This document shows, in pieces, positions 507 through 62,927 of a stretch of DNA of 64,000 nt. Position 1 is the first letter of the stretch. Each line of letters begins with the position of its first letter. Source of the stretch: Candidatus Rokuibacteriota bacterium (GTDB taxonomy: Bacteria > Methylomirabilota > Methylomirabilia > Rokubacteriales > CSP1-6). The stretch is from positions 15,882 through 79,881 of the forward strand of contig JACPDG010000043.1 of assembly GCA_016184125.1 (NCBI GenBank), given 5' to 3'. A model generated the notes under the pieces. That model was not told where the DNA came from. It ran no database searches and saw nothing but the letters and a program-made list of their open reading frames with translations. The translations under genes were made by a program, and so were the position numbers.

Positions 507-653
507 CGTGGCCCCCTTTCGTTGTGAGAGTTACATCCGGGGTCCGAATTGAACCGCTTACAATCGCCGGCTCCTCCGTAACCTAGCGTCCTTACGGACT
601 TCGGGCAATGGCGATCCCTTGGCACATCCATCGCACGTCGAGACATCGCGACG

Positions 654-4201: not shown

Positions 4202-4525
4202 ATCCGTCTCCTCGTCGTTCCGCCCGCCATGGGGCTCGCGCCCAGTCAAACGGTCAACCCTCGACCACGCAGCCTACGTGCCAACGAGGTGACGTCGAAA
4301 CTTTCCACGACGGATTCCCGCCATTTCCTGCGGCGTTCGGCCGCGTCGGCGGCGCAGCACGGAGGGAGACATTGCAACTTCTACACCCCAAATCGTGGAG
4401 AAGTTTTCAATGGGCTGGTCGGCGCCGAGGCACACGAGCGTGCAACCACGCGGACCTGCGGCACGTCGATCCGCTGGCACATCCACTGCACACTCGTGAC
4501 ACAATTCGGTCGACCTGGAGGGACC

Positions 4526-4684
4526 ATGCCGAACATCAAGCCGCCCGATCCGAGCGAGCTTCGGGACAAGCTGTTCAAGGAAGACCGACCACGCCCGATC
4601 GACCGCTACATCGATTTCTTCGGAACCGGCGACGGGGACCGCGATCGCGGGACGCACCCGTTCGAGGACCGGCGGGAGCGATGA
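4526..4684 (+). CDS. small hypothetical protein (52 aa), translationally coupled to the M48 peptidase
   Basis: GGAGGG ribosome-binding site 5 nt upstream of the ATG; stop overlaps the peptidase start (ATGA); charged, Asp/Arg-rich. Confidence 0.4.
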   Translation: MPNIKPPDPSELRDKLFKEDRPRPIDRYIDFFGTGDGDRDRGTHPFEDRRER

Positions 4685-5358
4685 TCCGGCCCGCCGCGGC
4701 CCTGCTCGTCCTGGCCTCGCTCGCGACTGCGTGCGCGGCGCCCACGAGCGCGCCGCGGCAGCCCCAGGCGGAGACGCGTCGCGCGCCCTCGGCCGCGCGC
4801 CCCGTCGATCCGAAGCAGGCCGAGCGCCTGCAGCGCGTGATGGTCCCCCTGATCCGGGCGGCCAGCAACCCGCGTCCGCTGAGCCAGGTCCGCGTGGGGA
4901 TCGTCGATGACGCTCACATCAACGCGGCAAGCGGCGGCAACGGCGAGTTCTACGTCACGCGCGGGTTGCTGGAGAAGGCGAACGACGAGCAACTGGCGGG
5001 CGTGCTGGCGCACGAGATCGCGCACGACGACCTGAATCACGTCGCCAAGGCGCAGGCGCTCGGCGCTGGACTGAACATCGGCATGATCATCCTCGACCAG
5101 CTGTTTCCGGGGAGCGGCGCCATCACGCCGATCGCCGGGCAGCTGATCGCCCGCAAGTACAGCCGGGACGAGGAGTACGCCGCGGACCGTCACGGCGCCG
5201 AGATCCTGCGTCGCGCCGGTCTGCCACCCGACATCATGCTCCGCACGCTGACGTGGCTGATGAACACGTCGGGCGCCGGTGGCAGGAGCGGGTTCTTCTC
5301 GACGCACCCGGCCACGACCGACCGGATCGACGCGCTCCGACGCCTGACGCAGCGCTGA
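4681..5358 (+). CDS. M48-family zinc metallopeptidase, lipoprotein
   Basis: MIRPAAALLVLASLATAC lipobox; HEIAHDDLNH (HExxH) motif. Confidence 0.85.
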   Translation: MIRPAAALLVLASLATACAAPTSAPRQPQAETRRAPSAARPVDPKQAERLQRVMVPLIRAASNPRPLSQVRVGIVDDAHINAASGGNGEFYVTRGLLEKANDEQLAGVLAHEIAHDDLNHVAKAQALGAGLNIGMIILDQLFPGSGAITPIAGQLIARKYSRDEEYAADRHGAEILRRAGLPPDIMLRTLTWLMNTSGAGGRSGFFSTHPATTDRIDALRRLTQR

Positions 5359-5412
5359 GAAACTCGGGGGCTTCGCCCGGGGTGTGGGGGCCGTTTCGGG
5401 GCCCCCACGTCC

Positions 5413-5718
5413 CTAGCCCCGCGTCGCGACCTTGCCGGCGAGGTATCCGAGCCCGATCGCGATCGCGACCGCCGCGAGCGGGTGCTGGCGCACCGCGGCA
5501 CGCGCGTCCGCGGCCCACGACTCGATCGGACGCCCGGTGAGCTCCGCCACGCGGGCGTTCGCCCTCTGGGCCATGTCCTGAGCCCGCTCCGAGACACCCG
5601 ACATGCGGGCCTGGATGTACGCCCCCGCGCGCTCGGCCACGTCCTGCGTGGAATCCACAACGCGACGCGTCGTCTCGGTCGAGGCCTCCCGCACGCGGTC
5701 CGCCGGTCGATCGTCCAT
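5413..5718 (-). CDS. DUF883 / ElaB-YqjD family membrane-anchored stress protein
   Basis: Coiled-coil N-terminus and C-terminal LAAVAIAIGLGYLAGKV anchor, typical of ElaB/YqjD. Confidence 0.7.
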   Translation of the reverse strand: MDDRPADRVREASTETTRRVVDSTQDVAERAGAYIQARMSGVSERAQDMAQRANARVAELTGRPIESWAADARAAVRQHPLAAVAIAIGLGYLAGKVATRG

Positions 5719-5787
5719 GACTCGTTCCTCCTTGTGCTCGATGTGACGTGCAGCCGTGCGACGCGCGTGCCAGAGGCGGCGCGCGCG

Positions 5788-6720
5788 TCACGCGCCCGAA
5801 CGGGCGCGCCGGACGCGACCGCTCTCGAGGAGCAGCGTGAGCGTCTGGCGCTCCCGGAAGAACGTGCGGAAGGGGTCGCCCTTCTGCGCCAGCCGCTCGC
5901 GGATGTTGCCGACGTGGAAGTCCTCGGGGTAGGTCGCGCGCTCGAGCTCGGGCCACTCGAGCGGCGCGGACACCGTGGGGGTGTGCTCGCGCACCGAGTA
6001 CGGGCTGATCATCGTCGCGCTGCGCCGGTTTCGGTGCACGTCGATGAGGATCTTGCCGCGCCGCCGCGCGCGCCGCATGTCCAGCGTGAACAGCGACGGC
6101 TCCCGCGTGCGCGCCATGCGGGTGATGGTCTCCGCGGCGAGCAGCACCTGGTCGTAGGTGTGGATCGGCTCGAGCGGCACCATGACGTGCATGCCGCTGC
6201 CCCCCGACGTCTTCACCCAGCTGCGGATCTTGAACTGCGCGAGCAGGTCGCGCACGAGCATCGCGGCGTTCCGCACCTCGCGGAACGCGATCTCGGTCGG
6301 ATCGAGGTCGAAGAGCAGCATGTCCGGCTTCTCGACGGAGTCGACCGTGCAGTTCCACGGATGGTGCGACACGCAGCCGAGGTTCACCAGATACACGAGC
6401 GCGGCGCGGTCGCTGCCGATGACGTACTCGGCGTACCCGAGCGCCGCGTGGTCCGTGCGGATACGCCGCGTGGGAATCCACGGCGGGAGGCCGGGCGGCG
6501 CCGTCTTCTGATACAGCCAGTCGGTCGCCGATGCCGCCTCGGCGCTCCTGAGCAGGCTCAGCGGCCGGTTCACCAGGAAGGGCATGAGATGGCCGTCCGC
6601 CACGTCGAGGTAGTACTCCATGAGGTCGCCCTTCGTGAATCGCGCCTCGGGCCACAACGCCTTGTCGAGGTCGGACAGGATCAGACGGCGACCATCGATC
6701 TCGCTCAGTCGGGTCGACAT
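5788..6720 (-). CDS. stand-alone LigD polymerase/primase domain (NHEJ PolDom)
   Basis: LLFDLDP...KTSGGSGMHVMVPL motifs characteristic of the archaeo-eukaryotic-primase-like LigD polymerase domain. No ligase or phosphoesterase domain is attached. Confidence 0.8.
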   Translation of the reverse strand: MSTRLSEIDGRRLILSDLDKALWPEARFTKGDLMEYYLDVADGHLMPFLVNRPLSLLRSAEAASATDWLYQKTAPPGLPPWIPTRRIRTDHAALGYAEYVIGSDRAALVYLVNLGCVSHHPWNCTVDSVEKPDMLLFDLDPTEIAFREVRNAAMLVRDLLAQFKIRSWVKTSGGSGMHVMVPLEPIHTYDQVLLAAETITRMARTREPSLFTLDMRRARRRGKILIDVHRNRRSATMISPYSVREHTPTVSAPLEWPELERATYPEDFHVGNIRERLAQKGDPFRTFFRERQTLTLLLESGRVRRARSGA

Positions 6721-6780
6721 CGCCCGCCCGTCAGCGCGCCGCAGACCGCAACACGCTGCGCATGCTCTGCGCCATGCACG

Positions 6781-7080
6781 TCACGCCGCGCGGCGCCGGT
6801 CCGTGGCCGGCCGGTCGTGACGCGCGGCCGCGAAACGGTCCATCGCGGCGAACGCGCCGGCCAAGGCGAGCCCCGTCTGCACGGTCCGCGCGGCGGTGCT
6901 GATGAGCGTGAGCATCGGCACGCGCGAGAGCGCGAGGCCGACGGCGAAGCCGACGGCGATGGTGGCGTACGGGATCCACCAGCGATCGGGCAGGCGGCGC
7001 CCGAGAGCATCGAGCTCGCGCTCGATGAGCTGTCGCGTCAGCGCAATGTCAGCCTGGATCTCGTCTGTCCTGCGAGCCAT
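6781..7080 (-). CDS. DUF3618-like small membrane protein
   Basis: MARRTDEIQADIALTRQLIERELDALGRRL...single TM. The upstream R-rich extension of the track ORF is discarded. Confidence 0.55.
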   Translation of the reverse strand: MARRTDEIQADIALTRQLIERELDALGRRLPDRWWIPYATIAVGFAVGLALSRVPMLTLISTAARTVQTGLALAGAFAAMDRFAAARHDRPATDRRRAA

Positions 7081-7442
7081 CGCCAGGTCTCCCTGAGTGA
7101 AGCGAGCGTTTCGCGCGGCCACTCGAGGTGCGTGAGCCGGTAGGCGCTCCACGCGAGCACCGCGAGGGCGAGGAGCACGACGCCGCCGCCGGCGATGACG
7201 AGCGGCTCCCCGGGGGCATCGAACAGGGGCGCGATCGCGCCGGCGATCAGCACCACGAGCGCTGCGACGAGCGCTGCGGCCGCGACGAGGGCGATCGCGC
7301 CGGCGATCAGCGCGGCGACGGCGACCTCGCGCGTCTCCGCGAGCCCGAGCTCGAGCTCGAGCTTCGCAAGACGGCCGAGACGATCGATGACGCCCGAGGA
7401 ATCGGCGTCGCGCGGCACGTCGAGACGTCGCACGCTGGCCAT
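7038..7442 (-). CDS. phage holin family (holin-X/DUF1469-like) membrane protein
   Basis: MASVRRLDVP...GRLAKLELELGLAETREVAVAALIAGAIALVAAA...two TM helices; commonly co-located with DUF883 and DUF3618. Confidence 0.6.
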   Translation of the reverse strand: MASVRRLDVPRDADSSGVIDRLGRLAKLELELGLAETREVAVAALIAGAIALVAAAALVAALVVLIAGAIAPLFDAPGEPLVIAGGGVVLLALAVLAWSAYRLTHLEWPRETLASLRETWRWLAGQTRSRLTLR

Positions 7443-7525
7443 TGGACGACAGCCAAGCAATTCCGCTGCCGCCGATCGCCGTACGCCGGTGCGGGCGGCC
7501 GCGGCGCGCGCCGCGCATGCGGACG

Positions 7526-10500
7526 TCATCCGAAGTCGTGCGAGCGGACGGCCGGGGCGTTCACGCGGAGCGCGCGGACGCCGTCCGCGCGGATTGAAAT
7601 GACTCCATCCTGCGTTTGTAAGATCCCCTCGACCCAGAGGAACGGCGCGGCCACGAGCGTCAGGCGCTCGCGCGCGAACAGCGGCGGCTGGACGATCACG
7701 TTCGCGAGCCCCGTCTCGTCCTCGAGCGTCAGGAACACGAATCCCTTCGCGGTCCCCGGCCGCTGCCGCACGATGACGCCGCCCGCGATCGCGACGCGAG
7801 CGCCGTCGGCGAGACGGCGGAGATCGATCGCGCGGACCGCGCCGCGGCGGTCGAGCGCGTCCCGCAGCAGCGCGAGCGGGTGACGGCCGAGCGTCACGCC
7901 GGTGCCCGCGTAGTCGGCGGCGAGACGGTCGCGCGCCGCCATCTCCCGGAGCGGATGCGCGCGGGCCTCGCCGGCATCGGCGGGGTCGCGACCGTTCCCG
8001 CGCGCGCTCGCGGCGGTCCCGAACAGCGCGCCGGGCGACGGCACGGCCGCCTCCCACAGCATCGCGCGTCGCGTTCCGCCGAGCGAGGCGAGCGCGCCGA
8101 TCGCCGCGAGCTGCGTGAGCTCGTCGCGGTCGAGCCCGGTCCGGTGTGCGAGATCGTGCACGGAGGTGAACGGCCGCACGCGCCGCGCCGCGACGAGCGC
8201 CTGGCCCGCGCGCTCGCGCAGGCCCTTCACGTAGCGAAGCCCGAGCCGGACGGCGAAGCCGCCGCCGGACGCTTCGAGGGTGCAGCGCCAGTCCGATCGC
8301 GCGACGTCGACGGGCAGGATGCGCTGGCCGTGGCGCTGCGCGTCCTTCACGATCGTCGCCGGGTGGTAGAAGCCCATCGGCTGGTTGTTGAGCAGCGCCG
8401 CGTAGAACGCCGCGGGATGGCGCACCTTGAGGTAGGCGCTGGCGTACGCGAGCAGCGCGAAGCTCGACGCGTGCGCCTCGGGGAACCCGTAGAGCGCGAA
8501 CGACGTGATCGCGTGCACGATCTCGTCGGCGGCCGCGCCCTCGATCCCCTGGCGCGTGAGCCCGGCCCGCAGCTTCGTCTCGATCTCGACCATCCGCCGC
8601 TCGCTGCGCTTGAATCCGAACGCGCGCCGGAGCTCCTCCGCCTCGCTCGCGGTGAACCCGGCCGCGACCATCGCCATGCGGATGAGCTGTTCCTGGAAGA
8701 GCGGCACGCCGAGCGTGCGTTCGAGGATGGGCTGGAGCGAGGGGTGCGCGTACGTGACCGGCTCGCGGCCGCGCCGCCGCCGGATGTAGGGATGCACCAT
8801 GTTGCCGACGATCGGCCCGGGCCGGATGATCGCGACCTGCACGACGAGGTCGTAGAAGCGCTCGGGGTGCACGCGCGGGAGCGTCGCCATCTGCGCGCGG
8901 CTCTCGACCTGGAACACGCCGACCGTGTCCGCGGCCTGGAGACTGCGGTACACCTCCGGGTCGTCGGGCGGCAGGCGCGCCAGATCCACCTCCGCGCCCG
9001 TCTCGCGCACGAGCGCGAGCGCGTCCTGCAGCACGGACATCATGCCGAGCCCGAGCAGGTCGACCTTCACGATGCCGAGCGCGGCGCAGTCGTCCTTGTC
9101 CCACTGGATGACGACGCGGCCCGGCATGGTCGCGGGCTCGAGCGGCACCACGTCGTCGAGCCGCCCCGCGGCGATCACCATCCCGCCGGAGTGCTGGCCG
9201 AGATGACGCGGGAGATCCTGCACGGCGACCCAGAGGGCCGCGAACTTCCGGATGCGCGGATGGCGCGGATCGCAGCCCGCGTCGGCGAGGCGGTGGACGA
9301 GCGATGCACTCGGATCCTGGTAGCCCCAGGTGTCGACGAGCTTCGCGAGCCGGTCCTGGAGCTCCCCGGGGAGCCCGAGCGCCTTGCCGACCTCGCGCGC
9401 GGCGCTCCGACCGCGATACGTGATGACGTTCGCCGTCATGCCGGCGCCGAGACGCCCGTAGCGTCGGTAGACGTACTGGATCACGGCCTCTCGCCGCTCG
9501 CCGCTCGGCAGGTCGAGATCGATGTCCGGCCACTCGCCGCGCGCCTCGGACAGGAACCGCTCGAAGAGGAGATCCATGCCGACGGGATCGACGGCCGTGA
9601 TGCCGAGCGCGTAGCAGACGGCACTGTTGGCCGCCGATCCCCGCCCCTGCACGAGGATGTCGTTCGCGCGGCAGAAGTCGACGACGTCCCGCACGATGAG
9701 GAAGTACCCGGCGAGGTCGAGCCGGCCGATGATCGCGAGCTCGTGCTCGACCTGCCGGCGCGCGCGCGCCGCCAGCGGCCCGTGGCCGTACCGCTCGCGG
9801 ACGCCGCGCTCGACGAGCTCGGAGAGGTGTGCGAGCGGTGTCGAGCCCGGCGGCAGCGGGTAGTCCGGGAAGCGAGAGCCGAGGTCCTTGAGCGTGAACC
9901 CGAGCCGCATCGCGAGCTCCCCGGTCGCGTGGACGGCGTCCGGGAGGTCGGCGAAGATGCGGGTCATGTCCTCGCCGTTCCGCAGCCCGCGCTCCTCGTT
10001 CGCGAGGAGCGCGCGTCCTGCGTGGTCGAGGTCCGTCTTCTCGCGGATGCACGTGAACACGTCGGTCACCGCGCGCCCGGCCGGCCGCGCGTAGAGCGGC
10101 TGGTTGGCGGCGACGAGGCCGACGCCGGCGTCGCGCGCGAGCGTGACGAGGCGCTCGAGGCGCTTCTCCTGCTCGCGGTCGAACTGTCGCTGGACCTCGA
10201 CGAAGCACGAGGAGCGCCCGAAGATGCCGACGAGACGATCGAGCGTGGCGCGCGCGGCGGCGCGGTCGCCGGCCGCGACGGCGCGCGCGAGCGGTCCGTG
10301 CGCGCCGCCGGTGAGACAGACGAGTCCCGACGCGTACGCCTCGACGTCGTCCAGCGTGACGGCCGCCTGCCCCTTCGGCGCGGCGAGCTTGGCGCGCGTC
10401 AGGAGCCGGCACAGGTTCCGGTAGCCCTCCCGGTCCTCGACGAGCAGCGGCAGGCGCGAGCCGTCCGCGAGCGTCACCTCGCTGCCGACGAGCGCCTTGA

Positions 10501-10672
10501 GCCCCGCGTTCGCGGCGGCGCGATAGAACCGCGGCGCGCCGTACACGCCATCACGGTCGACGAGCGCGATCGCCGGCATCTCGAGACGCGCGGCCTCGGC
10601 GACGAGCGTCTCGGGCAGGTCGGCGGCCGCGAGAAACGAGAACGCGGACTGCGCGTGCAGCTCGATGAACAT
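7526..10672 (-). CDS. dnaE2: error-prone DNA polymerase DnaE2 (ImuC)
   Basis: MFIELHAQSAFSFL start, PHP domain and pol III alpha catalytic core; 1048 aa. Confidence 0.95.
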   Translation of the reverse strand: MFIELHAQSAFSFLAAADLPETLVAEAARLEMPAIALVDRDGVYGAPRFYRAAANAGLKALVGSEVTLADGSRLPLLVEDREGYRNLCRLLTRAKLAAPKGQAAVTLDDVEAYASGLVCLTGGAHGPLARAVAAGDRAAARATLDRLVGIFGRSSCFVEVQRQFDREQEKRLERLVTLARDAGVGLVAANQPLYARPAGRAVTDVFTCIREKTDLDHAGRALLANEERGLRNGEDMTRIFADLPDAVHATGELAMRLGFTLKDLGSRFPDYPLPPGSTPLAHLSELVERGVRERYGHGPLAARARRQVEHELAIIGRLDLAGYFLIVRDVVDFCRANDILVQGRGSAANSAVCYALGITAVDPVGMDLLFERFLSEARGEWPDIDLDLPSGERREAVIQYVYRRYGRLGAGMTANVITYRGRSAAREVGKALGLPGELQDRLAKLVDTWGYQDPSASLVHRLADAGCDPRHPRIRKFAALWVAVQDLPRHLGQHSGGMVIAAGRLDDVVPLEPATMPGRVVIQWDKDDCAALGIVKVDLLGLGMMSVLQDALALVRETGAEVDLARLPPDDPEVYRSLQAADTVGVFQVESRAQMATLPRVHPERFYDLVVQVAIIRPGPIVGNMVHPYIRRRRGREPVTYAHPSLQPILERTLGVPLFQEQLIRMAMVAAGFTASEAEELRRAFGFKRSERRMVEIETKLRAGLTRQGIEGAAADEIVHAITSFALYGFPEAHASSFALLAYASAYLKVRHPAAFYAALLNNQPMGFYHPATIVKDAQRHGQRILPVDVARSDWRCTLEASGGGFAVRLGLRYVKGLRERAGQALVAARRVRPFTSVHDLAHRTGLDRDELTQLAAIGALASLGGTRRAMLWEAAVPSPGALFGTAASARGNGRDPADAGEARAHPLREMAARDRLAADYAGTGVTLGRHPLALLRDALDRRGAVRAIDLRRLADGARVAIAGGVIVRQRPGTAKGFVFLTLEDETGLANVIVQPPLFARERLTLVAAPFLWVEGILQTQDGVISIRADGVRALRVNAPAVRSHDFG

Positions 10673-10674
10673 CT

Positions 10675-10752
10675 GATCATGGGGGGACTACCGAAGCCCC
10701 CCATACCCCCCGGCGCTCGGAGCGCCCCGGCCCAGCCGTGGCGCTCCTCGAC
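10675..10752 (+). repeat. family A repeat, copy A2, in the 100-bp gap between imuB and dnaE2
   Basis: TCATGGGGGGACTACCGAAGCCCCCCATACCCCCC...CGCTCGG...CTCCTCGA. Confidence 0.8.
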
Positions 10753-10774
10753 GACACGCTTCGTTCACGGGCCC

Positions 10775-12565
10775 TCAGTCGTACGCTCCGTCGAGATACC
10801 ACTCGCCGGTCATCCGGTCGCGCGCGAGACGGCACAGCATGCCGTCCGCGAGCGCGACGTCCCACTCCTCGCGCGCCCACCCGTTCGTCGTCCACCACTC
10901 GCCCGACGTGCGCCACGGCCCTGCGCTCGCGACGATCGCTTGCGGGCGTGACACACCACCGAGCGCGTCGTGGAACGCCACCTGCACCGGCGCGTCATCC
11001 ACGAGCGTGACGTCGACCCGGCGCGGCGGCCGAACACGCCGGAACGCGAGCGGCATGGTCGGCAGCGACCGCGGCGCGCCCGCATCAGCGTCCGCCCCGG
11101 ACGTCGATGGCACCGTGGCGTCACCGTCGCCGTCCCACACCGGCACCTCGCCGTCGTCGCCGTCCCGCCACGCGTCGTCGTCCGAGAGTTCGAGCAACAA
11201 TCGACCGCCGGGCGGTCGATTGTTGGCTCGAACTGAGTCGGCGACGCGCGGCGGCGCGAACGGCACGAGCGTCACCGGATCGGCGCGATGCGAGTCGAGG
11301 ATCACCGGCGAGCCGACGTTGTCGCGGCCGACGAGCGTCGCGAGCCGGACCAGCGTCTCGGTCAGGTCGCGCAGCGCGGGACCGGGACGTTCGCCGAGCC
11401 TCGCCTGCGCCGCCTCCGCGCGGACGGCGCGCGCGCTCACCGCGACGCGGGTGACCGGCGCCGAGGGTGGACGCGCCTCGAGCTCGAGCGCGACGAGGAC
11501 CAGCATCGGCCGTGGATCGCACGACGGCGACGCGAGCGCCACCGTGCGCACATCGTGGGCGCCGCTCGCGAGCGCGAGCTCGAGCCGCAGCGTGTCGGCC
11601 GACACGTGCCCGGCGGCAAGACGCGCCGTGAGCCGCTCGAGCAGCTGCCGGAGCATCGGCTCGAGCCCGCTCCACGTGTCGACCTCCCAGTCGAGCCCCT
11701 GCGCTTCCTGCCAGAACGGCGGCGGCGACCACGGCCGGAACGCTGTCCGGTCGTGGCCGAGCGCCTCGTCCTGCGCGTCGAGCCCTGCCCGGCCGAGCCG
11801 CGTTCCGAGGCCGTCACGAGGCAGCGCCGCGAGCTCGCCGAGCGTCACGACGCCCCAGCGCGCGAACGTCTCGGCGAGCGGCGGCGCCAGATCGAGGACG
11901 GCGAGCGGCACCGCGCCGAGCGCGTCGCGCTCACATCCAGGCGGGACGACGTGGCAGCGGGACGCGATGGACGTCTCCGCAGGCTCAGGGCCCGTGAACG
12001 CATCCGCGGATCGAGCCGCACGCAAACCCGAGGAGCGCCGCGGGTCCCCCGCGGCGCTTCCGAGCGCGGGGGGTTTGGGGGGCTTCGTTAGTCCCCCCAT
12101 GATGGAGAGTCCGGCGATGCGCGCGGCCGTCCGGGTCCCCGCCACGCCGACGGTCGCGTCGAGCCCGACGCCGCGCGCGGCGCGCACGAGCCGCTCCGCG
12201 ATGCGCCCGTCGTCTCCGAGCAATCGCGCGAGCCCGGCGAGGTCGACGGAGACGATCCCTGGCCCGCCGTCTTCCACGCGTGGCGACACCCCGAGCGCGG
12301 CTTCGAGCAGCGCGTGCTGCGCGAGCGTGGCGCGCTCGTCGGACACGGCGCGGACCGCGAGCGCGACGCAGCGGGCGCGTGCTTCGGTCTCCGTCATCCC
12401 CGGCACGACACCCGCGGCGCGAGCAGCATCGCTCGCCTCGACGATGCGCCGCGCGGGCGGCGTCCCCGTCACCACCGCCAGGGGTCGATCCCGCAGGTCC
12501 GGCTCGCACCGCGCGTGCGCGGCCGCGGCGAAGTGGTCGACGAGCAGGCAGCCGAAGCGGTTCAT
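10775..12565 (-). CDS. imuB: ImuB (Y-family polymerase-like mutasome subunit), carrying two in-frame repeat-derived insertions
   Basis: MNRFGCLLVDHFAAAA...UmuC-like N-terminal domain. ATGA overlap with the imuA stop. The ORF remains open through a family A copy (12039-12103) and a family B palindrome (11186-11236). Confidence 0.8.
   Translation of the reverse strand: MNRFGCLLVDHFAAAAHARCEPDLRDRPLAVVTGTPPARRIVEASDAARAAGVVPGMTETEARARCVALAVRAVSDERATLAQHALLEAALGVSPRVEDGGPGIVSVDLAGLARLLGDDGRIAERLVRAARGVGLDATVGVAGTRTAARIAGLSIMGGLTKPPKPPALGSAAGDPRRSSGLRAARSADAFTGPEPAETSIASRCHVVPPGCERDALGAVPLAVLDLAPPLAETFARWGVVTLGELAALPRDGLGTRLGRAGLDAQDEALGHDRTAFRPWSPPPFWQEAQGLDWEVDTWSGLEPMLRQLLERLTARLAAGHVSADTLRLELALASGAHDVRTVALASPSCDPRPMLVLVALELEARPPSAPVTRVAVSARAVRAEAAQARLGERPGPALRDLTETLVRLATLVGRDNVGSPVILDSHRADPVTLVPFAPPRVADSVRANNRPPGGRLLLELSDDDAWRDGDDGEVPVWDGDGDATVPSTSGADADAGAPRSLPTMPLAFRRVRPPRRVDVTLVDDAPVQVAFHDALGGVSRPQAIVASAGPWRTSGEWWTTNGWAREEWDVALADGMLCRLARDRMTGEWYLDGAYD
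11186..11236. repeat. family B 50-bp palindrome, copy B1, inside imuB
   Basis: GAGTTCGAGCAACAATCGACCGCC-GG-GCGGTCGATTGTTGGCTCGAACT; encodes ...ANNRPPGGRLLLE... in frame. Confidence 0.8.
12039..12103 (-). repeat. family A repeat, copy A3 (reverse orientation), inside imuB
   Basis: Reverse complement reads CCATCATGGGGGGACTAACGAAGCCCCCCAAACCCCCCGCGCTCGGAAGCGCC; encodes ...SIMGGLTKPPKPPALGSAAG... in frame. Confidence 0.75.
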
Positions 12566-13146
12566 GCGCTGAACCGCGCGGCTCCGGGCCACGCGCGGGC
12601 ACGCGGATGGCGTGCCGCGTGCGGCCGCAGGAGGTGCAGCCGCGTGCGCATGGCGGCGAGTCGCGTCGCTCGCGTCCCCGGCCCGGTCCACTCGAGCGCG
12701 TCCTGCACGGTCTCGATCACGAGCGCGGCGCCGGAGCCGGCGACATGACGGCGGCCGAGCAGGACCAGGGCTGCGCGCGTGCGTCGCACCGCGAGCTTGA
12801 GCCGGAACGCGGTCTCGAGCGAGAGCCGCGGCGGCACGTCTCCCGTGTCGAGCGCGACGAGCGCGAACCCGGGGCGACGGACGAGCACGTCGGTCGCGCG
12901 CAGCGCGACCGACCGGCGTCCGGCGCACCGCACCCACAGCAGGCGCCGGAGGTCGACGCCCGCACGCGCGGCCGCGGCGGGATCGAACGCCTCGTCGGTG
13001 TCGACGAGCCCCGCCACGCCGCCGTTCGCGGTGGCGCGCGCAAGCCACGCGAACAGGAGACTCGTGCGGCCGGAGGAGAGCCGGCCGACGATCTCGGTGA
13101 TCTCCGAGAGAGGCGGAAACTCGGGATACATCGCATTTACCTGCAC
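12562..13146 (-). CDS. imuA: ImuA (RecA-fold SOS mutasome component)
   Basis: GRLSSGRTSLLFAWLARATANGGVAGLVDTDEAFDP is a RecA/SulA-like P-loop-degenerate core. Sits upstream of imuB-dnaE2. Confidence 0.8.
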   Translation of the reverse strand: MQVNAMYPEFPPLSEITEIVGRLSSGRTSLLFAWLARATANGGVAGLVDTDEAFDPAAAARAGVDLRRLLWVRCAGRRSVALRATDVLVRRPGFALVALDTGDVPPRLSLETAFRLKLAVRRTRAALVLLGRRHVAGSGAALVIETVQDALEWTGPGTRATRLAAMRTRLHLLRPHAARHPRARAWPGAARFSA

Positions 13147-13183
13147 GCAGCGCGCGGCGCAGCCACATAGCGTCGTGCATGCC

Positions 13184-13203
13184 CGTGATCTATCCTTATC
13201 ACG
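13184..13203. promoter_or_regulatory. palindrome CGTGAT-N8-ATCACG, 38 bp upstream of imuA; candidate SOS (LexA-type) operator
   Basis: Perfect 6-bp inverted arms in the divergent imuA/oxidoreductase promoter region. It does not match any LexA consensus I can name, so this is inference only. Confidence 0.3.
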
Positions 13204-13384
13204 TGTTGAGTGTTGCGCAAGACCGCAGATATCGGGGCGTGGTTCCGGCGTGCCGCTACATCCTGTGTTCCTGGCGCATCGGGTGATCTCGGCCCCGGGG
13301 TAGCGTCACCGTGCGCTGTCGCACGACCACTGGCCTTCGCCTTGCAGTCCTGATGAAAAAAACACGTTCGTGGGAAGCAAGGAG

Positions 13385-14467
13385 ATGCCGAAGCAGCTTG
13401 GGTATGCCGTGGTCGGCCTCGGCGATATCGCCCTCCGGGCGGTGCTGCCTGCGTTCGCAGGTGCCGCCGAGAACTCGAAGCTCGTGGCCGTCGTGTCCGG
13501 AGATCGCGCCAAGGCGCAGGCGCTCGCCCAGGAGTTCCGCGCGACGCCCTACCACTACGACGAGTTCCGCCAGTGCATCACGCGCGACGACGTCAACGCG
13601 GTCTACATCGCGCTCCCGAACTCGATGCACTGCGACTACACCGTCGAGGCGGCGCGCGCCGGCGTCCACGTGCTCTGCGAGAAGCCGATGGCGGTCACCG
13701 CCGACGAGTGCCGCCGCATGCTCCGGACCTGCCAGACGAACCGCGCCAAGTTGATGATCGCCTACCGGCTGCACTTCCAGCCGGCGAACCTCCGCGCCAT
13801 CGAGCTCGTGCGCACCGGGCAGATCGGCCTGCCGAAGACCTTCAGCTCGGACTTCAGCATCAAGGTGGACGACCCGGACGACATCCGCCTGCAGCGCCGG
13901 CTCGGCGGCGGCACGGTGTACGACCTCGGCGTCTCCTGCATCAACACCGCGCGGAACCTCTTTGCCGCCGAGCCGGCGCAGGTGATGGCCATGACCGGGC
14001 GCACGACGCGCCGCTACGGCGGCGACGTCGACGAGGGCACGGTGGCGCTCATCCGGTTCCCCGACGAGCGGCTCGCGCATTTCCACACGAGCTTCGGTGA
14101 GGAGAAGAAGTCCGAGTTCACCATCTTCGGCGAGGACGGGTTCATCCGGCTCCTCGACGCGTACCCTCCCCACGCGCCGATGACGCTCGAGCTCGTGCGG
14201 GGCGGGCACGTCGAGACGATGCACTTCGAGGCCACGGACCAGTTCGCGGCGGAGATCAGTTATTTCTCCGATTGCATCCAGAAGGATCGCCAACCCGAAC
14301 CCTCGGGGGTCGAGGGACTCCAGGACGTCCGCCTCGTCGAGGCGATCTATCGGTCGGCGCGCGATGGCCGGCCGGTGACCCTGCCGCGACTCCAGCGCGT
14401 CGACGCGGCCCCCACGCCGGATCAGGAGATCCGCAAGCGGGCGGTCGAGCGACGCCACGCGAGCTGA
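13385..14467 (+). CDS. Gfo/Idh/MocA family NAD(P)-dependent oxidoreductase
   Basis: LGYAVVGLGDIA Rossmann N-terminus...EKPMA motif; AAGGAG ribosome-binding site before the ATG at 13385. Confidence 0.9.
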   Translation: MPKQLGYAVVGLGDIALRAVLPAFAGAAENSKLVAVVSGDRAKAQALAQEFRATPYHYDEFRQCITRDDVNAVYIALPNSMHCDYTVEAARAGVHVLCEKPMAVTADECRRMLRTCQTNRAKLMIAYRLHFQPANLRAIELVRTGQIGLPKTFSSDFSIKVDDPDDIRLQRRLGGGTVYDLGVSCINTARNLFAAEPAQVMAMTGRTTRRYGGDVDEGTVALIRFPDERLAHFHTSFGEEKKSEFTIFGEDGFIRLLDAYPPHAPMTLELVRGGHVETMHFEATDQFAAEISYFSDCIQKDRQPEPSGVEGLQDVRLVEAIYRSARDGRPVTLPRLQRVDAAPTPDQEIRKRAVERRHAS

Positions 14468-14553
14468 CGCGGCGAGCGGCGCGCGCGCCGGGGGCCGGAC
14501 GGGCGCGCGCGTCGCAAGCAGTCACGTTACCGGCCAAGGGAGGAACCAGACCC

Positions 14554-15102
14554 ATGGAGTCATGGAAGCGCATCACCACCCTCACCGTGGCGGTCCTGCT
14601 CGTCGCAGGGCCGGCGTGGGCGCAGGGCACGAGCACCTCGGGCGAGAAGGCGAAGCCCGGTACGTCCGCCTCCGGGCCCGCTGCGTCGGGCACGACGGAC
14701 AAGGCCGACAAGGGCGGCACCGCGGGAACGATGGACAAGGCCGAGAAGCGCGGCGAGATGGCCAAGGGCGACCGCGACGGCAAGGGTGGCACCGCCAGGG
14801 GAGGCCAGAACCAGGAGCAGATCAAGGCCGTTCAGGAGGCGCTCAAGGACAAGGGCCACGATCCCGGCGAGATCGACGGGCTGATGGGCCCCAAGACGAA
14901 GGCCGCCCTGCGTGACTTCCAGCAGAAGGAAGGCCTGAAGGAGTCCGGGCGGCTCGACAAGGAGACGATGGCGAAGCTCGGTGTCGAGATGAAGGCCGGT
15001 GCCGCGGACACGTCGAGCCCCGCGGCCTCGCCGGGGACCGGTGACAAGTCCGGCGCGGCCCCAGGAAGCGCGCCGAGCACGGGCGGCGCGCAGAAGAAGT
15101 AG
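14554..15102 (+). CDS. secreted peptidoglycan-binding (PG_binding_1) domain protein
   Basis: Signal peptide MESWKRITTLTVAVLLVAGPAWA; low-complexity Gly/Lys region; C-terminal QEALKDKGHDPGEIDGLMGPKTKAALRDFQ PG-binding motif. AAGGGAGG ribosome-binding site. Confidence 0.7.
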   Translation: MESWKRITTLTVAVLLVAGPAWAQGTSTSGEKAKPGTSASGPAASGTTDKADKGGTAGTMDKAEKRGEMAKGDRDGKGGTARGGQNQEQIKAVQEALKDKGHDPGEIDGLMGPKTKAALRDFQQKEGLKESGRLDKETMAKLGVEMKAGAADTSSPAASPGTGDKSGAAPGSAPSTGGAQKK

Positions 15103-15224
15103 CGCGCCGGGCGCTGCCAGCACGGAGGCCGGGAGGATGCCTTCCGGCCTCCGTCACGTCCCGGGACGGCGCCTGATCGCACCGCCGACGTCCGCGATCC
15201 GCGGCCCGAACCAGAAGGAGACGC

Positions 15225-16478
15225 ATGCCGAGGTCCCGCTGTCCCGTCGTGGTGCTCACCGCGCTGCTGCTGGCGGTGACGGGCTGCGCGCGCGTCCATC
15301 CCCATCTCGCGCTGCCCGCGATGGCCCTCGGCGAACCATCGTTCTTCCCGACGATCGAGGCGTACACCGCGGCGCCGATCGTCGGCGGCAACACCGTCGA
15401 GGTGCTCCTGAACGGCGAGGAGATCTTCCCGGCGGTCATCGACGCGGTGCGCGCCGCCCGGCGCACGATCACGTACGCGCAGTACTACTGGGAGGACGGC
15501 CCGGTGGCGGGCGAGCTCGCCGAGGCGATCGCCGAGCGCTGCCGCGCCGGTGTCGGCGGCAACATCCTGCTCGACTCGTTCGGGACCCTCGCAATGCCCA
15601 CGGAGCACGTCGACCTGATGAAGCGCGCCGGCTGTCACGTCGCGTTCTTCCGGCCGCTGACCCGCACGATCTTCGGCCGAGCGAACAACCGCAATCACCG
15701 GCGCGTCCTCGTCGTCGACGGGCGGGTCGGGTTCATCGGCGGCTCGGGCGTGAGCCGCAAGTGGATGGGCAATGGCCGCATCGCCGACCACTGGCGCGAC
15801 ACCGACGTGCGCCTGGAGGGGCCGGTCGTCGAGTACCTGCAGGGCGCCTTCGCCGAGAACTGGCTCGAGGCCACCGGCGTGGTGCTTGGCGGTGAGGCAT
15901 ACTTCCCCCGCCCGCTCGCCCCGCGCGGATCCGTCTACGCGCAGATCGTGCGCAGCTCGCCCGCCGGCGGCAGCTTCGCGATGTACACGACGTTCCTGCT
16001 CGCCATGGCGTCGGCGCGGCGCTCGGTCTACATCACGAACCCGTACTTCGTGCTCGACGAGGCGATGGCGAACGCGCTGCTGAGCGCCGTGCGCCGTGGC
16101 GCGCGCGTCGTGGTCCTCGTGCCCGGCGCGATCGACCACAACATCGTCCGGCAGGCCAGCCGCGGGCAGTTCGGGCGGATGTTGCGAGGCGGCGTCGAGA
16201 TCTACGAGTATCGGGCGGGGCTGCTGCACGCCAAGACCATGGTGATCGACGGCGTCTGGTCGACGGTGGGCAGCACCAACCTCGACAACCGGTCGTTCGC
16301 CCTGAACGAGGAGCTGAACGTCGTGATCTACAGCGCCACGGTGGCGCGGCGATTCGAGGCGATCTTCCTGGACGACCTCGCCCACTCGGGGAAGGTCGAG
16401 TACCGGGACTGGCGCAAGCGCGGACTCGGGGACCGCGTGCTGGAGCTCCTGTCGTGGCCCATCCGCGACTGGCTCTGA
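15225..16478 (+). CDS. cardiolipin synthase / phospholipase D family lipoprotein
   Basis: Two HKD motifs (HRRVLVVDG..., LHAKTMVIDG...); lipobox LLLAVTGC. Confidence 0.9.
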   Translation: MPRSRCPVVVLTALLLAVTGCARVHPHLALPAMALGEPSFFPTIEAYTAAPIVGGNTVEVLLNGEEIFPAVIDAVRAARRTITYAQYYWEDGPVAGELAEAIAERCRAGVGGNILLDSFGTLAMPTEHVDLMKRAGCHVAFFRPLTRTIFGRANNRNHRRVLVVDGRVGFIGGSGVSRKWMGNGRIADHWRDTDVRLEGPVVEYLQGAFAENWLEATGVVLGGEAYFPRPLAPRGSVYAQIVRSSPAGGSFAMYTTFLLAMASARRSVYITNPYFVLDEAMANALLSAVRRGARVVVLVPGAIDHNIVRQASRGQFGRMLRGGVEIYEYRAGLLHAKTMVIDGVWSTVGSTNLDNRSFALNEELNVVIYSATVARRFEAIFLDDLAHSGKVEYRDWRKRGLGDRVLELLSWPIRDWL

Positions 16479-16793: not shown

Positions 16794-16896
16794 CCCCTGC
16801 CACTCCTTTCGCCGGAAGGCCTCTCCGGCTCGCTGGGATGGACGAGGTTGCACACCGGGTGCCAGCGGCGAGCGACGGGTAAGCCTACGGTAAGCC

Positions 16897-17085: not shown

Positions 17086-17197
17086 CGGACCTCCCCGCGA
17101 CCCGAAACTGCGCGAACCCTTCGGACTGTACGCGAAGATGCGAAGCGGGCCAAGCACCCCGCGAGGCCTGGCACGTGGTTCGCACCCTGCGAGAGGC

Positions 17198-17398
17198 ATG
17201 AGCCTGTGCGCATCGTGTGGACTCCAGCTCTCCGGTGATGCCGCGCTGTGCCCCCATCATCATTGCGTGTACGGCGATGACTGGGCCGTGGCGAACCGTA
17301 TCATGTGCGACTTCTTCCACCGGAAGAAGGTTCCGCCACGGCTCGCGAAGTCCGAGCGCGACGATGAGTTCTGGGCGCACACCGGGGAAGCCGCCTGA
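17198..17398 (+). CDS. small Cys-rich hypothetical protein (66 aa), possible zinc ribbon
   Basis: CASCG...CPHHHC motif; ends at the start of family A copy A4. Confidence 0.3.
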   Translation: MSLCASCGLQLSGDAALCPHHHCVYGDDWAVANRIMCDFFHRKKVPPRLAKSERDDEFWAHTGEAA

Positions 17399-42537: not shown

Positions 42538-43383
42538 TCAGCGCCCCTGAACGAATCGCGCCCTCGAGGGCCGTCCCGGGTTCCGCGGGTGCGTCCGCGC
42601 ACCCCCCGGGACGGCTCCGAGCGCTGGGGGCCGGGGGAGTCCGAGGGGGGCGTCAGCCCCCTTCGTGCGATGGTCGGGGGCCATGTCGGGGCCCCCCATG
42701 ATCTCAGTTCGAGCGACAATCGACCGCCGCGGCGGTCGATTGTCGCTCGAACTCTCAGACGTCACCCCGGCCCGCGTCCCACGACGGCGCACGCGGAACG
42801 CGCGCACCGCGCCGGCCAGGCGCACGCCGAGCAGCACGGCGAGGATGGCCGCGTACACGTACGGCTCGATGCGCCCGACCTTGGCGAGCCACATGAAGTG
42901 CAGCACGCCCAGCACGGCCGCGACGTACACGATGCGGTGGAGCCGGCGCCATGCCCGCGCGCCGAGACGCTTCACCATCCCGGACGTCGACGTCGCGGCG
43001 AGGAGGACGAGCAGCGCGAGCGCCGAGACGCCGACCGTGATGTACGGCCGCTTCACGATGTCCGCGCCCATCTGCGCCCACGCGAAGAAGTGGTCGAGCA
43101 CGACCCAGACGAGGAAGTGCAGCGACACGTAGAAGAACGCGAACAGCCCGAGGAGGCGGCGGAGGATCAGCGGCCAGCCGATGCCGAGCACGAGACGCAG
43201 CGGTGTGAGGGCGAGGCTCGCGAGCAGCATCCGCATGCCCCAGCGACCCAGCGTGTCGGTGACGAAGTCGATGGGGTTCGCGGTCAGGTCGCCCGTCCAC
43301 GCGCGCCAGGCCAGCAGCGCGAGCGGTACCAGGCAAGCGCCCCAGACCAGGGTCTTCAGCAGGATTCGCCCGCGTCGCGTCAC
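42538..43383 (-). CDS. msrQ: MsrQ (heme-binding membrane subunit of the MsrPQ methionine sulfoxide reductase), with ~70-aa repeat-encoded C-terminal extension
   Basis: Six-TM ferric-reductase-like core (FFYVSLHFLVWVVLD...HRIVYVAAVLGVLHFMWL). The ORF stays open through B2 and A13 to a stop at 42538. Confidence 0.75.
   Translation of the reverse strand: MTRRGRILLKTLVWGACLVPLALLAWRAWTGDLTANPIDFVTDTLGRWGMRMLLASLALTPLRLVLGIGWPLILRRLLGLFAFFYVSLHFLVWVVLDHFFAWAQMGADIVKRPYITVGVSALALLVLLAATSTSGMVKRLGARAWRRLHRIVYVAAVLGVLHFMWLAKVGRIEPYVYAAILAVLLGVRLAGAVRAFRVRRRGTRAGVTSESSSDNRPPRRSIVARTEIMGGPDMAPDHRTKGADAPLGLPRPPALGAVPGGARTHPRNPGRPSRARFVQGR
42560..42702 (-). repeat. family A repeat-derived block A13 (two partial reverse copies including the GGGTGCGTCCGCGCACC module)
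   Basis: CCCGGGTTCCGCGGGTGCGTCCGCGCACCCCCCGGG...GGGGGCCATGTCGGGGCCCCCCATGATCTC. Confidence 0.65.
42707..42754. repeat. family B palindrome, copy B2
   Basis: AGTTCGAGCGACAATCGACCGCC-GC-GGCGGTCGATTGTCGCTCGAACT; carries a compensatory C-G change relative to B1 and B4. Confidence 0.8.
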
Positions 43384-44379: not shown

Positions 44380-44402
44380 CCTCCTGCTCTCGTCAGCTTC
44401 TC

Positions 44403-44450
44403 AGTTCGAGCAACCATCGACCGCCGCGGCGGTCGATGGTTGCTCGAGTT
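44403..44450. repeat. family B palindrome, copy B3
   Basis: TTCGAGCAACCATCGACCGCC-GCG-GCGGTCGATGGTTGCTCGAG, with a compensatory CC-GG pair. Lies between the response-regulator stop and the msrP start. Confidence 0.75.
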
Positions 44451-44451
44451 C

Positions 44452-45129
44452 TCACACGGCGAAACGGTAGCCCTGCGCGTGGACCGTCTGGATCCACACG
44501 GGATGATCGGGATCGGTCTCGAGCTTCTTCCGGAGCCTGAGCACGTGCGTGTCGACCGTCCGGGTCGTCGGGAACCGCTCGTACCCCCACACCTCGTCGA
44601 GCAGGCGCTCGCGCGTCAGCACGTCGCCACGGTGCTCGACGAGGTGGACGAGGAGATCGAATTCCTTGCGCGTCATCGCGAGCTCGCGTCCCGCCTTGAA
44701 CACGCGGCGAGCGCGCCGGTGGATCCGCACGTCGCCGAACTCCAGGTCCTGCGACTTCTCGCGCGGACCCGGCCGGCGCAGGACGGCGCGCACCCGCGCC
44801 AGCAGCTCCCGCAGGGAGAACGGCTTCGTGACGTAGTCATCGGCGCCGAGCTCGAGGCCCAGCACCCGGTCCATCTCCTCGCCGCGCGCCGAGAGCATGA
44901 TGACGGGCACCTCGATGCCCTTCTTCCTGAGCTCCCGGCACACGTCCCAGCCGCTCATGACGGGCATCATGATGTCGAGGACGACGAGATCCGGCGCCGC
45001 GCTCGCCGCGAGCGCCAGGGCGTCGGCGCCGTTCGTCGCGGTCAGTGTCTCGTATCCCTCGAAGCGCAGATTGTCCTCGAGGCCCCGCACGATCTCCGGC
45101 TCGTCGTCGACGATGAGGATGCGTGGCAT
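44452..45129 (-). CDS. OmpR-family response regulator
   Basis: MPRILIVDDEPEIV...winged-helix C-terminus (YRFAV). Confidence 0.9.
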   Translation of the reverse strand: MPRILIVDDEPEIVRGLEDNLRFEGYETLTATNGADALALAASAAPDLVVLDIMMPVMSGWDVCRELRKKGIEVPVIMLSARGEEMDRVLGLELGADDYVTKPFSLRELLARVRAVLRRPGPREKSQDLEFGDVRIHRRARRVFKAGRELAMTRKEFDLLVHLVEHRGDVLTRERLLDEVWGYERFPTTRTVDTHVLRLRKKLETDPDHPVWIQTVHAQGYRFAV

Positions 45130-62468: not shown

Positions 62469-62581
62469 ACGCCGAGTCGTTCACGGGGGATCAGCCACGA
62501 CGGGGTCGCGAGCCGTTCTTCTCTCGAGCAGCTTGGAGACGCCTTCGACGACGCGCTCGAACAGCTTCCGGAGGCCGCCTC

Positions 62582-62629
62582 AGTTCGAGCCAACAATCGA
62601 CCGCCCGGCGGTCGATTGTTGCTCGAACT
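62582..62629. repeat. family B palindrome, copy B4
   Basis: AGTTCGAGCCAACAATCGACCGCC-CG-GCGGTCGATTGTTGCTCGAACT; ends 2 nt before the stop of the minus-strand lipoprotein gene. Confidence 0.8.
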
Positions 62630-62630
62630 C

Positions 62631-62927
62631 TCAGCGGCGCGCTTCCAGGCAGTCCCGGTAGATGAAGTTCCGGATGTCCCGCTCGATCTGCGCCTTGCTC
62701 GATGCCGTGGCGACCGTCCACTCCCGTGCGTCGGTCCACGGCGTCCCCGACCACGGGGCCGACGCGGTCGTTTCCTCTGGGCTCGTCGCCCGCCGAGCCG
62801 CACGGTCGCACTCGGCCGAACGATCCCCGGCCGCGAACGCCGACACGTCGGAGGTCCGATCACGCTCGATCACGGCGCACGCGCTCACGGACGCGACCAG
62901 CACGATCAGGCCGACGATTCGCTTCAT
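62631..62927 (-). CDS. small hypothetical lipoprotein
   Basis: MKRIVGLIVLVASVSAC lipobox; ~98 aa. Confidence 0.4.
   Translation of the reverse strand: MKRIVGLIVLVASVSACAVIERDRTSDVSAFAAGDRSAECDRAARRATSPEETTASAPWSGTPWTDAREWTVATASSKAQIERDIRNFIYRDCLEARR

Follow-up and report, generated by a model that had tools for sequence, protein, structure and literature searches.

Seven co-directional genes on the minus strand of the 64,000-nucleotide stretch analysed here (the window, from contig JACPDG010000043.1 of a Candidatus Rokuibacteriota bacterium, with a G+C content of ~70%) connect the error-prone ImuA-ImuB-DnaE2 mutasome to a stand-alone polymerase of non-homologous end joining (NHEJ) and to three small membrane proteins, and the question is whether they are transcribed together. 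The initial annotation had taken them to suggest one damage-inducible transcription unit behind a palindromic candidate operator. We favour, with a probability of about 0.65, two adjacent units with separate promoters in the Rokubacteria chromosome. The first, imuA-imuB-dnaE2 (translesion mutasome), would be transcribed from a sigma-70-like promoter bearing a dyad, and the second, composed of a yqjE-like (holin-X) gene, DUF3618, ligD-pol and DUF883, with a Ku gene added in some relatives, from a sigma-54 promoter in the gap between dnaE2 and holinX. Judged from their sequence context, the genes of the second unit (including Ku in three relatives) look like members of a sigma-54 stress island, and not of an SOS operon.

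Profile matches in Pfam and NCBIfam recovered all seven genes at the coordinates first assigned to them, and their identities were found to be correct (Table 1). The genes imuA, imuB and dnaE2 together have the gene content of a mutasome cassette, and this gene order is found in more than 120 loci. The matches of the imuA product to the NCBIfam ImuA and ImuA' profiles are weak, each below the cut-off, and its start is likelier at the ATG at 13131 (the MYPEF N-terminus is common to L133, one of the loci used for comparison, which carry L numbers here). The C-terminus of ImuB aligns with the ImuB of relatives. The DnaE2 of the window is 75-77% identical to proteins from Rokubacteria/Methylomirabilota metagenome-assembled genomes (MAGs), and over the Rokubacteria DnaE2 compared the identity is 75-88%. 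In the downstream part, the holinX protein has an exact (100%) counterpart at NCBI under the label Candidatus Rokubacteria bacterium, and its homologues carry the JGI name YqjE, in keeping with the stress-type membrane module that had been proposed for the holin-X-like, DUF3618 and DUF883 genes; the match to PF07332 passes its cut-off, while those to DUF883_C and DUF3618 do not. The LigD-type polymerase scores 216 against TIGR02778 (cut-off 214.7) and retains both catalytic motifs, FDLDP and SGGSGMH, and no ligase or nuclease domain was found in the protein with Pfam. Neighboring genes overlap (imuA/imuB by 4 nt and holinX/DUF3618 by 43 nt) or are separated by short gaps (102 nt for imuB-dnaE2, 83 nt for dnaE2-holinX, 60 nt for DUF3618-LigD-Pol, and 69 nt for LigD-Pol-DUF883), as had been described; the same 43-nt overlap is present in L136, L137, L138, L141, and L142. 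The cluster is flanked by a divergent GFO/Idh/MocA oxidoreductase gene beside imuA and a convergent M48 peptidase gene beside DUF883.

The linkage of the mutasome to the downstream genes, which the initial annotation had not recognised from elsewhere, is real and heritable. The divergent oxidoreductase gene followed by imuA-imuB-dnaE2-holinX-DUF3618-(Ku)-LigD-Pol-DUF883 is found in this order in 11 contigs (the window, the P0001 contig, L133, L136 in part, and L137-L143), across which LigD-Pol is 68-100% and DnaE2 76-88% identical; L134 and L135 are further contigs with the same LigD-Pol protein as L133. The neighborhood is syntenic over 17-20 kb, from the GDE and glycosyltransferase genes through adh_short and PGDH, and the seven genes stay adjacent in one lineage of uncultured soil Rokubacteria. 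A first synteny test, in which the seven proteins were compared by tblastn with 131 loci chosen via DnaE2 or ImuA (80 from GTDB and 51 from metagenomes), showed no such linkage; the idea of an idiosyncratic arrangement was rejected once contexts anchored on LigD-Pol or holin-X showed the 11 contigs. The junction is not present in four Rokubacteria with equally similar DnaE2 (L001, L002, L063, and L008), and the mutasome occurs without the island in ~125 other imuABC loci. Where the junction is kept, the content of the island varies: Ku and M48 may be present or absent, DUF883 is inverted in L140, and the cargo in relatives includes a DksA-like zinc finger. The Ku gene, found in L138, L139, and L143, lies between DUF3618 and LigD-Pol, directly upstream of the latter, and its end overlaps the LigD-Pol start by 4 nt in L138 and L139 and by a similarly short distance in L143. 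No Ku gene was detected in the window by tblastn with the L138 Ku protein. In two of the relatives the dnaE2 gene is itself interrupted by an intein (PF14890, Intein_splicing; L139 2805-6389, 1194 aa, and L141 5416-8937, 1173 aa), from which the DnaE2 of the window is free.

An argument for a separate second unit comes from the dnaE2-holinX gap. The gaps of the relatives are unalignable except for a single conserved block, (c/t)GGC(a/c)n5(a/c)TTGCT, which is present in 10 of the 10 contigs with DNA there (the window, L133, and L136-L143) and has exactly the geometry of a sigma-54 promoter, i.e. GG, ten bases, and GC. The block is separated from the conserved ATG of holinX by 14-17 nt, depending on the locus. 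A longer holinX coding region that would include the block was considered and rejected, since the offset to the ATG does not vary in multiples of three and the block is therefore not coding. An internal promoter is the kind of feature that the initial annotation had itself named as speaking against a single unit, and one is seen here, in silico only; the description of the seven genes as one damage-inducible transcription unit is not supported. A consensus scan for sigma-70 promoters and intrinsic terminators over 4300-14500 was uninformative at 70% GC (no promoters and only three terminators, at chance level). Between the convergent DUF883 and M48 genes, a partial repeat copy forms a strong hairpin that may act as a bidirectional terminator (Table 1). 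In this lineage, predicted -10 or -12 elements are found as close as 5-17 nt before the starts, in the case of imuA in L137, L138, L001, L002, and L063, and in the case of holinX in all island loci, so that many transcripts may be leaderless or nearly so.

The gap promoter has company. A scan with TGGCACG-N4-TTGCW gave four more sigma-54-like sites in the first 7.5 kb of the window, all of them intergenic, correctly oriented, and at orthologous positions in relatives. The one ahead of DUF883 is followed by an AAGGAGG ribosome-binding site and has equivalents in L136, L139, L141, and L143; in such genomes DUF883 could be served by a second sigma-54 promoter. The one at 620-635 precedes the orthologue of the 305-aa protein in L133, L136, L137, L138, L140, L141, and L142 (L139 and L143 end before the gene). 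Two features expected of a sigma-54 regulon are found, namely the GG/GC spacing with a TTGCW -12 element and an AAA+ activator with a GAFTGA loop. The second unit would then be one arm of a local regulon of five promoters, the others of which would drive the BON-activator-kinase genes, the small open reading frame (ORF) with the M48 peptidase, and the 305-aa protein. The whole regulon would presumably be switched on by the NtrC-type activator and the kinase of the island itself, and the gene content suggests envelope, osmotic, desiccation, or stationary-phase stress as the signal.

Elements resembling activator sites accompany these promoters. The inverted repeat at 4371-4411 is kept in 8 of 8 aligned loci and also in L143. 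No other stretch of the 3147-nt dnaE2 gene is as AT-rich as the patch in its 3' end, which lies ~140 nt upstream of the -24 element of the holinX promoter and resembles the inverted repeat in rare heptamers and layout; the heptamers ATTGAAA and CTTACAA have two copies each in 64 kb, and all four copies are located no more than 200 nt upstream of sigma-54-like promoters. Of the 123 Leu codons of dnaE2 a single one is TTA, and of its 32 Gln codons a single one is CAA; both fall in the patch, next to each other. This pair encodes a conserved 'LQ' and is kept in 9 of the 10 island-bearing loci, whereas the island-less L001, L002, and L008 have CTC/GTG-CAG in its place. The codon anomaly and the position of the patch suggest a putative enhancer for the holinX promoter embedded in the last 100 nt of dnaE2, and an enhancer inside dnaE2 would account for the lasting linkage of the two units. 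Outside the island, two more strong sigma-54-like promoters, again divergent (TGGCACCCGGTGTGCA and TGGCACGTGGTTCGCA), were noticed at 16849-16864 (minus strand) and 17169-17184 (plus strand), one upstream of a 256-aa minus-strand ORF and the other of a Cys/His-rich ORF of ~66 aa starting at 17199; use of sigma-54 may therefore be widespread in the genome.

The mutasome unit has a conserved element of its own. The alignment of 11 imuA upstream regions shows ATATCT..GG.CTTGc-N7-ACTCAACACGTGATwAG, with no conservation 3' of the final 'AG', and the aligned blocks fit a promoter whose -35 and -10 elements are separated by a spacer of 17-18 nt. An imperfect 18-bp dyad (search form ACTCAACACGTGATWAG) lies in this spacer and the -10 region, and its halves read ACTCAACAC and GTGATAAGG within the promoter of the window and ACTCAACAC and GTGATwAGt across loci. 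The block is conserved in the window, L001, L002, L063, L127, and L137-L142 and degenerate in L133 and L008, so that the dyad is present, at least in a weakened form, in 13 of the 13 Rokubacteria-type imuA loci, regardless of the flanking genes. In L002, for example, a short-chain dehydrogenase gene lies upstream, and integrases and an IS91 transposase downstream. The 13-mer CTCAACACGTGAT has four exact copies in the 2.07 Mb of DNA fetched, each 40-80 nt upstream of imuA. With a position weight matrix (PWM) built from the dyad sites, each Rokubacteria locus gives a single site, and no second one was found in ~260 kb of Rokubacteria sequence. The dyad accompanies the cassette in Rokubacteria and is likely bound by a repressor, which, if other phyla are a guide, would be damage-responsive (LexA).

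That the conserved block is a promoter only, read by an alternative sigma factor or as an extended -10 promoter, with no operator and a mutasome outside SOS control in this phylum, would agree with its -35/spacer/-10 geometry, with the imperfection of the dyad (6-7 of 9 positions paired), and with the lack of a second site in the ~260 kb scanned and of the published LexA motifs searched. Yet the bases of the spacer, which are normally variable, are the best conserved ones, CTCAACACGTGAT is identical between loci in which ImuA identity is only 45%, the PWM scan gives a score above background at the same position for the reverse complement as well, and the imuA promoters of other phyla examined here bear obvious repeat-type boxes, often with lexA adjacent; a promoter without operator is for these reasons considered unlikely. 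Concerning LexA itself, 12 published consensus motifs (the list partly from PMC4951493) and the mycobacterial RecA-NDp motif were searched with up to one mismatch, and none was found in the imuA upstream region save for a trivial CCT-N10-AGG near-match. When LexA and RecA were searched by tblastn against the window and every locus, lexA was located beside imuA solely in non-Rokubacteria loci, and neither lexA nor recA appeared in the window or the fetched Rokubacteria loci. More than 20 fetched loci have lexA within ~1 kb of imuA, usually on the opposite strand. The Acidobacteria-type imuA promoters (L083, L086, L087, L059, L064, L092, and others) contain GGCGAA-N5-GGCGAA direct repeats, and their recovery indicates that the approach detects operators where they are present; the loci with these repeats and those with adjacent lexA are not necessarily the same sets. 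On the other strand the repeat reads TTCGCC-N5-TTCGCC, consistent with a direct-repeat type of LexA box. Downstream of dnaE2 in the island-less MAG of L002 come two tyrosine integrase genes and one for an IS91-family (Y2) transposase (12382-16360), and the mutasome cassette there adjoins mobile DNA.

The palindrome that the initial annotation had proposed as a candidate operator is present at 13184-13203, and its role as an operator is not supported. Its left arm coincides with the 3' half of the conserved dyad; its right arm, located just 3' of the -10 element, is conserved in no relative. Perfect inverted repeats of its geometry (arms of 6 nt, spacer of 8 nt) number 59 in the window, and at least one inverted repeat with 6-nt arms and a spacer of 0-15 nt occurs in 89% of 244-bp segments. 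No second copy was found in the window, and the palindrome was found upstream of imuA in no relative among the loci fetched, with up to two mismatches allowed. Judged by frequency and conservation, it is a chance feature beside a real conserved element.

How, then, are the seven genes transcribed? A single LexA-type SOS operon, induced by damage at the imuA promoter and controlled via the palindrome, would be consistent with co-directional genes at short or overlapping distances, with an order kept in 11 contigs, and with the lack of a convincing terminator between dnaE2 and holinX. It is made very improbable by the chance-level palindrome with its non-conserved right arm, by the conserved sigma-54 promoter between dnaE2 and holinX, by the downstream four genes, whose promoter type and enhancer-like motifs are those of the activator island and not of imuA, and by other Rokubacteria, in which the mutasome and its promoter exist without the downstream genes. 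Control might instead be dual, with a real sigma-54 promoter and with transcription from imuA that also reads through dnaE2 into holinX and ligD-pol, so that both DNA damage and the island signal would raise the expression of the NHEJ polymerase, and the adjacency would be functionally selected. The gap has no significant terminator-like structure in the window and six relatives, the junction is kept although the island content varies (Ku and M48 present or absent, DUF883 inverted in L140), and the enhancer-like patch lies within dnaE2, all of which would suit such an arrangement. But the whole neighborhood of 17-20 kb is syntenic, so retention of the junction may be simple descent, and four Rokubacteria with equally similar DnaE2 do without it; we regard dual control as having a low probability.

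The two-unit reading, which we prefer, has to be set against several observations. The organism is uncultured, and promoter activity is inferred from sequence conservation; regulator identities, inducing signals, and enhancer function likewise derive from the sequence. In the window the -24 element of the gap promoter (CGGCAG) is weak, with agreement at 9 of 12 positions, and the predicted start only ~2-5 nt before the holinX ATG would give a near-leaderless mRNA. RNA folding of the gap in the window and six relatives gave no significant hairpin or terminator, so that transcription of the mutasome could continue into the downstream genes. No rpoN gene was seen in the annotated part of the window, where no search aimed at rpoN was made. 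The TTA-CAA patch is missing from L139. As for the dyad, L133, the closest relative, has it in degenerate form (PWM score 19.6 versus ~30), and it was seen upstream of imuA alone, so no regulon ties it to LexA. A more far-reaching picture, in which all these features belong together, is put forward only tentatively and appears rather doubtful: one Rokubacteria lineage would have built NHEJ into a sigma-54/NtrC regulon of dormancy and desiccation along with tail-anchored membrane proteins of the ribosome-hibernation type, the TTA/CAA codons of dnaE2 would hold the enhancer, and mutasome and end joining would be coupled both physically and transcriptionally. In such a case damage-driven transcription through dnaE2 would cross the sigma-54 promoter and could modulate it or read into it, and the motif of the mutasome promoter would be the site of LexA or of another repressor, new for the candidate phylum.

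Each part of the locus has relatives among known systems. Bacterial NHEJ is encoded by ku-ligD in Mycobacterium and by the sigma-G-dependent ykoV-ykoU in Bacillus spores, mycobacteria have the stand-alone PolD1 and PolD2, and NHEJ is associated with dormancy and desiccation. The locus shares with these operons a LigD-type primase-polymerase with intact motifs, the overlap with Ku in L138, L139, and L143, and, as predicted here, a tie of NHEJ to a dormancy- or stress-specific regulator; unlike in them, the polymerase carries neither ligase nor phosphoesterase domains and stands alone, the window is without Ku, and the predicted control is of the sigma-54/NtrC type. A further comparison is with sigma-54 stress regulons that have a dedicated activator, such as psp/PspF and rtc/RtcR. 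Common to both are several -24/-12 promoters around an own AAA+ activator with GAFTGA and conserved inverted repeats ~100-150 nt upstream of promoters, whereas the activator here is a two-component response regulator without an equivalog match in NCBIfam, the cargo comprises membrane stress proteins, a BON protein, an M48 peptidase, and an NHEJ polymerase, and one enhancer-like site apparently lies inside the dnaE2 coding region upstream. In content the island is similar to the proteins of stationary phase and envelope stress in Escherichia coli, where yqjD-yqjE-yqjK and elaB encode C-tail-anchored, ribosome-inactivating stress proteins under RpoS and OxyR (PMC6389858; bioRxiv 10.1101/2024.08.16.608256). 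In both cases a tail-anchored DUF883 protein is found near YqjE/DUF1469 (PF07332) and a third small membrane protein; here this third member is DUF3618-like, the predicted promoters are of sigma-54 and not RpoS type, and the module is interrupted by the NHEJ polymerase gene, and in some relatives by Ku as well. A LexA-regulated imuA-imuB-dnaE2 mutagenesis cassette has been described across phyla, e.g. in Verrucomicrobia (PMC4951493). The cassette of the window has the same three genes in the same order and tight linkage, a dyad overlapping the promoter, and varied genomic contexts, but its dyad ACTCAACACGTGATwAG fits no published LexA motif tested and no lexA lies nearby.

Our literature searches gave nothing relevant on NHEJ genes controlled by sigma-54, on LigD and imuB in one cluster, on DUF883 with DUF3618, or on Rokubacteria and LexA. 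If the proposed organization is true, double-strand-break repair in an uncultured soil phylum answers to an envelope or dormancy signal instead of DNA damage, with the NHEJ-bearing operon parked directly behind the error-prone mutasome. It offers three testable hypotheses, namely an 18-bp mutasome operator of Rokubacteria, a five-promoter sigma-54 regulon, and a coding-region enhancer flagged by unique rare codons. The locus also calls for caution in reading a sequence by itself, as co-directional genes with short gaps here probably do not form one operon, and a neat palindrome appears to be noise.

Table 1. Genes, predicted regulatory elements, and repeats of the mutasome-NHEJ region (positions in the window).
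Feature	Position	Strand	Remarks
imuA, RecA-fold accessory protein	13146-12562	-	Pfam RecA E=4.6e-10
imuB, Y-family, 596 aa	12565-10775	-	Pfam IMS (E=1.2e-18) and IMS_C
dnaE2 (imuC), error-prone C-family polymerase	10672-7526	-	PHP, DNA_pol3_alpha, finger, HHH_6, OB domains
holinX, YqjE-like membrane protein, Pfam 'Holin-X' PF07332 (Phage_holin_3_6)	7442-7038	-	34.8 bits, cut-off 28.4
DUF3618-like small membrane protein	7080-6781	-	20.8 bits, under cut-off 24.9; residues 2-30
Stand-alone LigD-type primase-polymerase (NHEJ Pol domain)	6720-5788	-	PF21686 LigD_Prim-Pol E=1.6e-74
DUF883 (ElaB/YqjD type), C-tail-anchored membrane protein	5718-5413	-	DUF883_C 24.8 bits, under cut-off 27
Candidate imuA promoter, sigma-70-like	13220-13192	-	conserved block upstream of imuA; -35 TTGCGC 13220-13215, spacer 17 nt, -10 AAGGAT 13197-13192
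Imperfect 18-bp dyad, candidate operator	13211-13194	-	halves ACTCAACAC and GTGATAAG; in spacer/-10 region of imuA promoter
Palindrome CGTGAT-N8-ATCACG, CGTGATctatccttATCACG	13184-13203		single exact copy in window
Sigma-54-type -24/-12 promoter (predicted), cGGCAGCGGAATTGCT	7471-7456	-	14 nt upstream of holinX ATG
AT-rich patch GGATCTTACAAACGCAGGATGGAGTCATTTCAATCC, candidate enhancer (activator or IHF site)	7591-7626	-	in dnaE2 3' end
Sigma-54-like promoter, TGGCACGCGCGTCGCA	5772-5757	-	upstream of DUF883; 11/12 consensus positions
Partial repeat copy, strong hairpin, possible bidirectional terminator	5340-5412		fold z-score -2.75, 0/200 shuffles as good
52-aa ORF	4526-4684	+	followed by M48 gene
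M48 lipoprotein peptidase	4681-5358	+	
Sigma-54-like promoter	4475-4490	+	upstream of 52-aa ORF and M48; conserved in all loci examined
Inverted repeat ATTGAAAACTTCTCCAC-N9-TGTAGAAGTTGCAAT, candidate activator site	4371-4411	-	between two divergent sigma-54-like promoters
Sigma-54-like promoter	4283-4268	-	upstream of BON, activator, and kinase genes
BON-domain protein	4249-3890	-	
NtrC-family sigma-54 activator	3726-2326	-	Response_reg, Sigma54_activat (E=9.6e-72), HTH_8, GAFTGA motif
Histidine kinase	2332-1682	-	follows activator
Sigma-54-like promoter	620-635	+	upstream of 305-aa protein, no Pfam family; feature ends 1571
Enhancer-like element	521-566	+	AT-rich, upstream of 620-635 promoter
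Repetitive extragenic palindrome/miniature inverted-repeat transposable element (REP/MITE)-like copy	10673-10774		fills imuB-dnaE2 gap; family D2 10696-10778; folds into two GC-rich hairpins
imuB insertion 1	~12020-12115	-	96 nt, 32 aa; copy of abundant G/C-run family; encodes AGLSIMGGLTKPPKPPALGSAAGDPRRSSGLR
imuB insertion 2	~11144-11248	-	~105 nt, 35 aa; contains copy of palindromic 60-nt family
REP/MITE-like copies	1574, 10696, 12046, 17410, 20410, 21141, 23992, 29322, 29410, 39325, 39449, 52665, 62305, 62393		

The repeat noted by the initial annotation in the imuB-dnaE2 gap was confirmed. It belongs to a REP/MITE-like family of ~80-110 nt with two GC-rich hairpins and at least 14 copies in 64 kb, for which no Rfam match was found; the Rfam scan of the window gave nothing at the gathering threshold. 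In L133 and L138 imuB and dnaE2 abut directly. In the close relative carrying P0001 only 32 nt separate them, and the copy in the gap of the window is therefore recent. Two more repeat insertions, overlooked before, are located in frame within imuB and coincide with repeat families D5 and D3. Insertion 1 immediately follows the Pfam IMS match (residues 9-151), and a perfect 15-nt palindrome lies at 11195-11225. Both insertions are absent from the ImuB of L133, L137, and L138 (494-529 aa), and in the window the frame and the conserved C-terminus are kept; such repeats in frame are reminiscent of the Rickettsia palindromic elements within genes. A second repeat family, a near-perfect palindrome of 60 nt with the halves TCTCAGTTCGAGCGACAATCGACCGCC and GCGGCGGTCGATTGTCGCTCGAACTCTCAG, is found at 42702-42761, 44399-44458, and 62578-62637, and also within imuB at 11183-11242.

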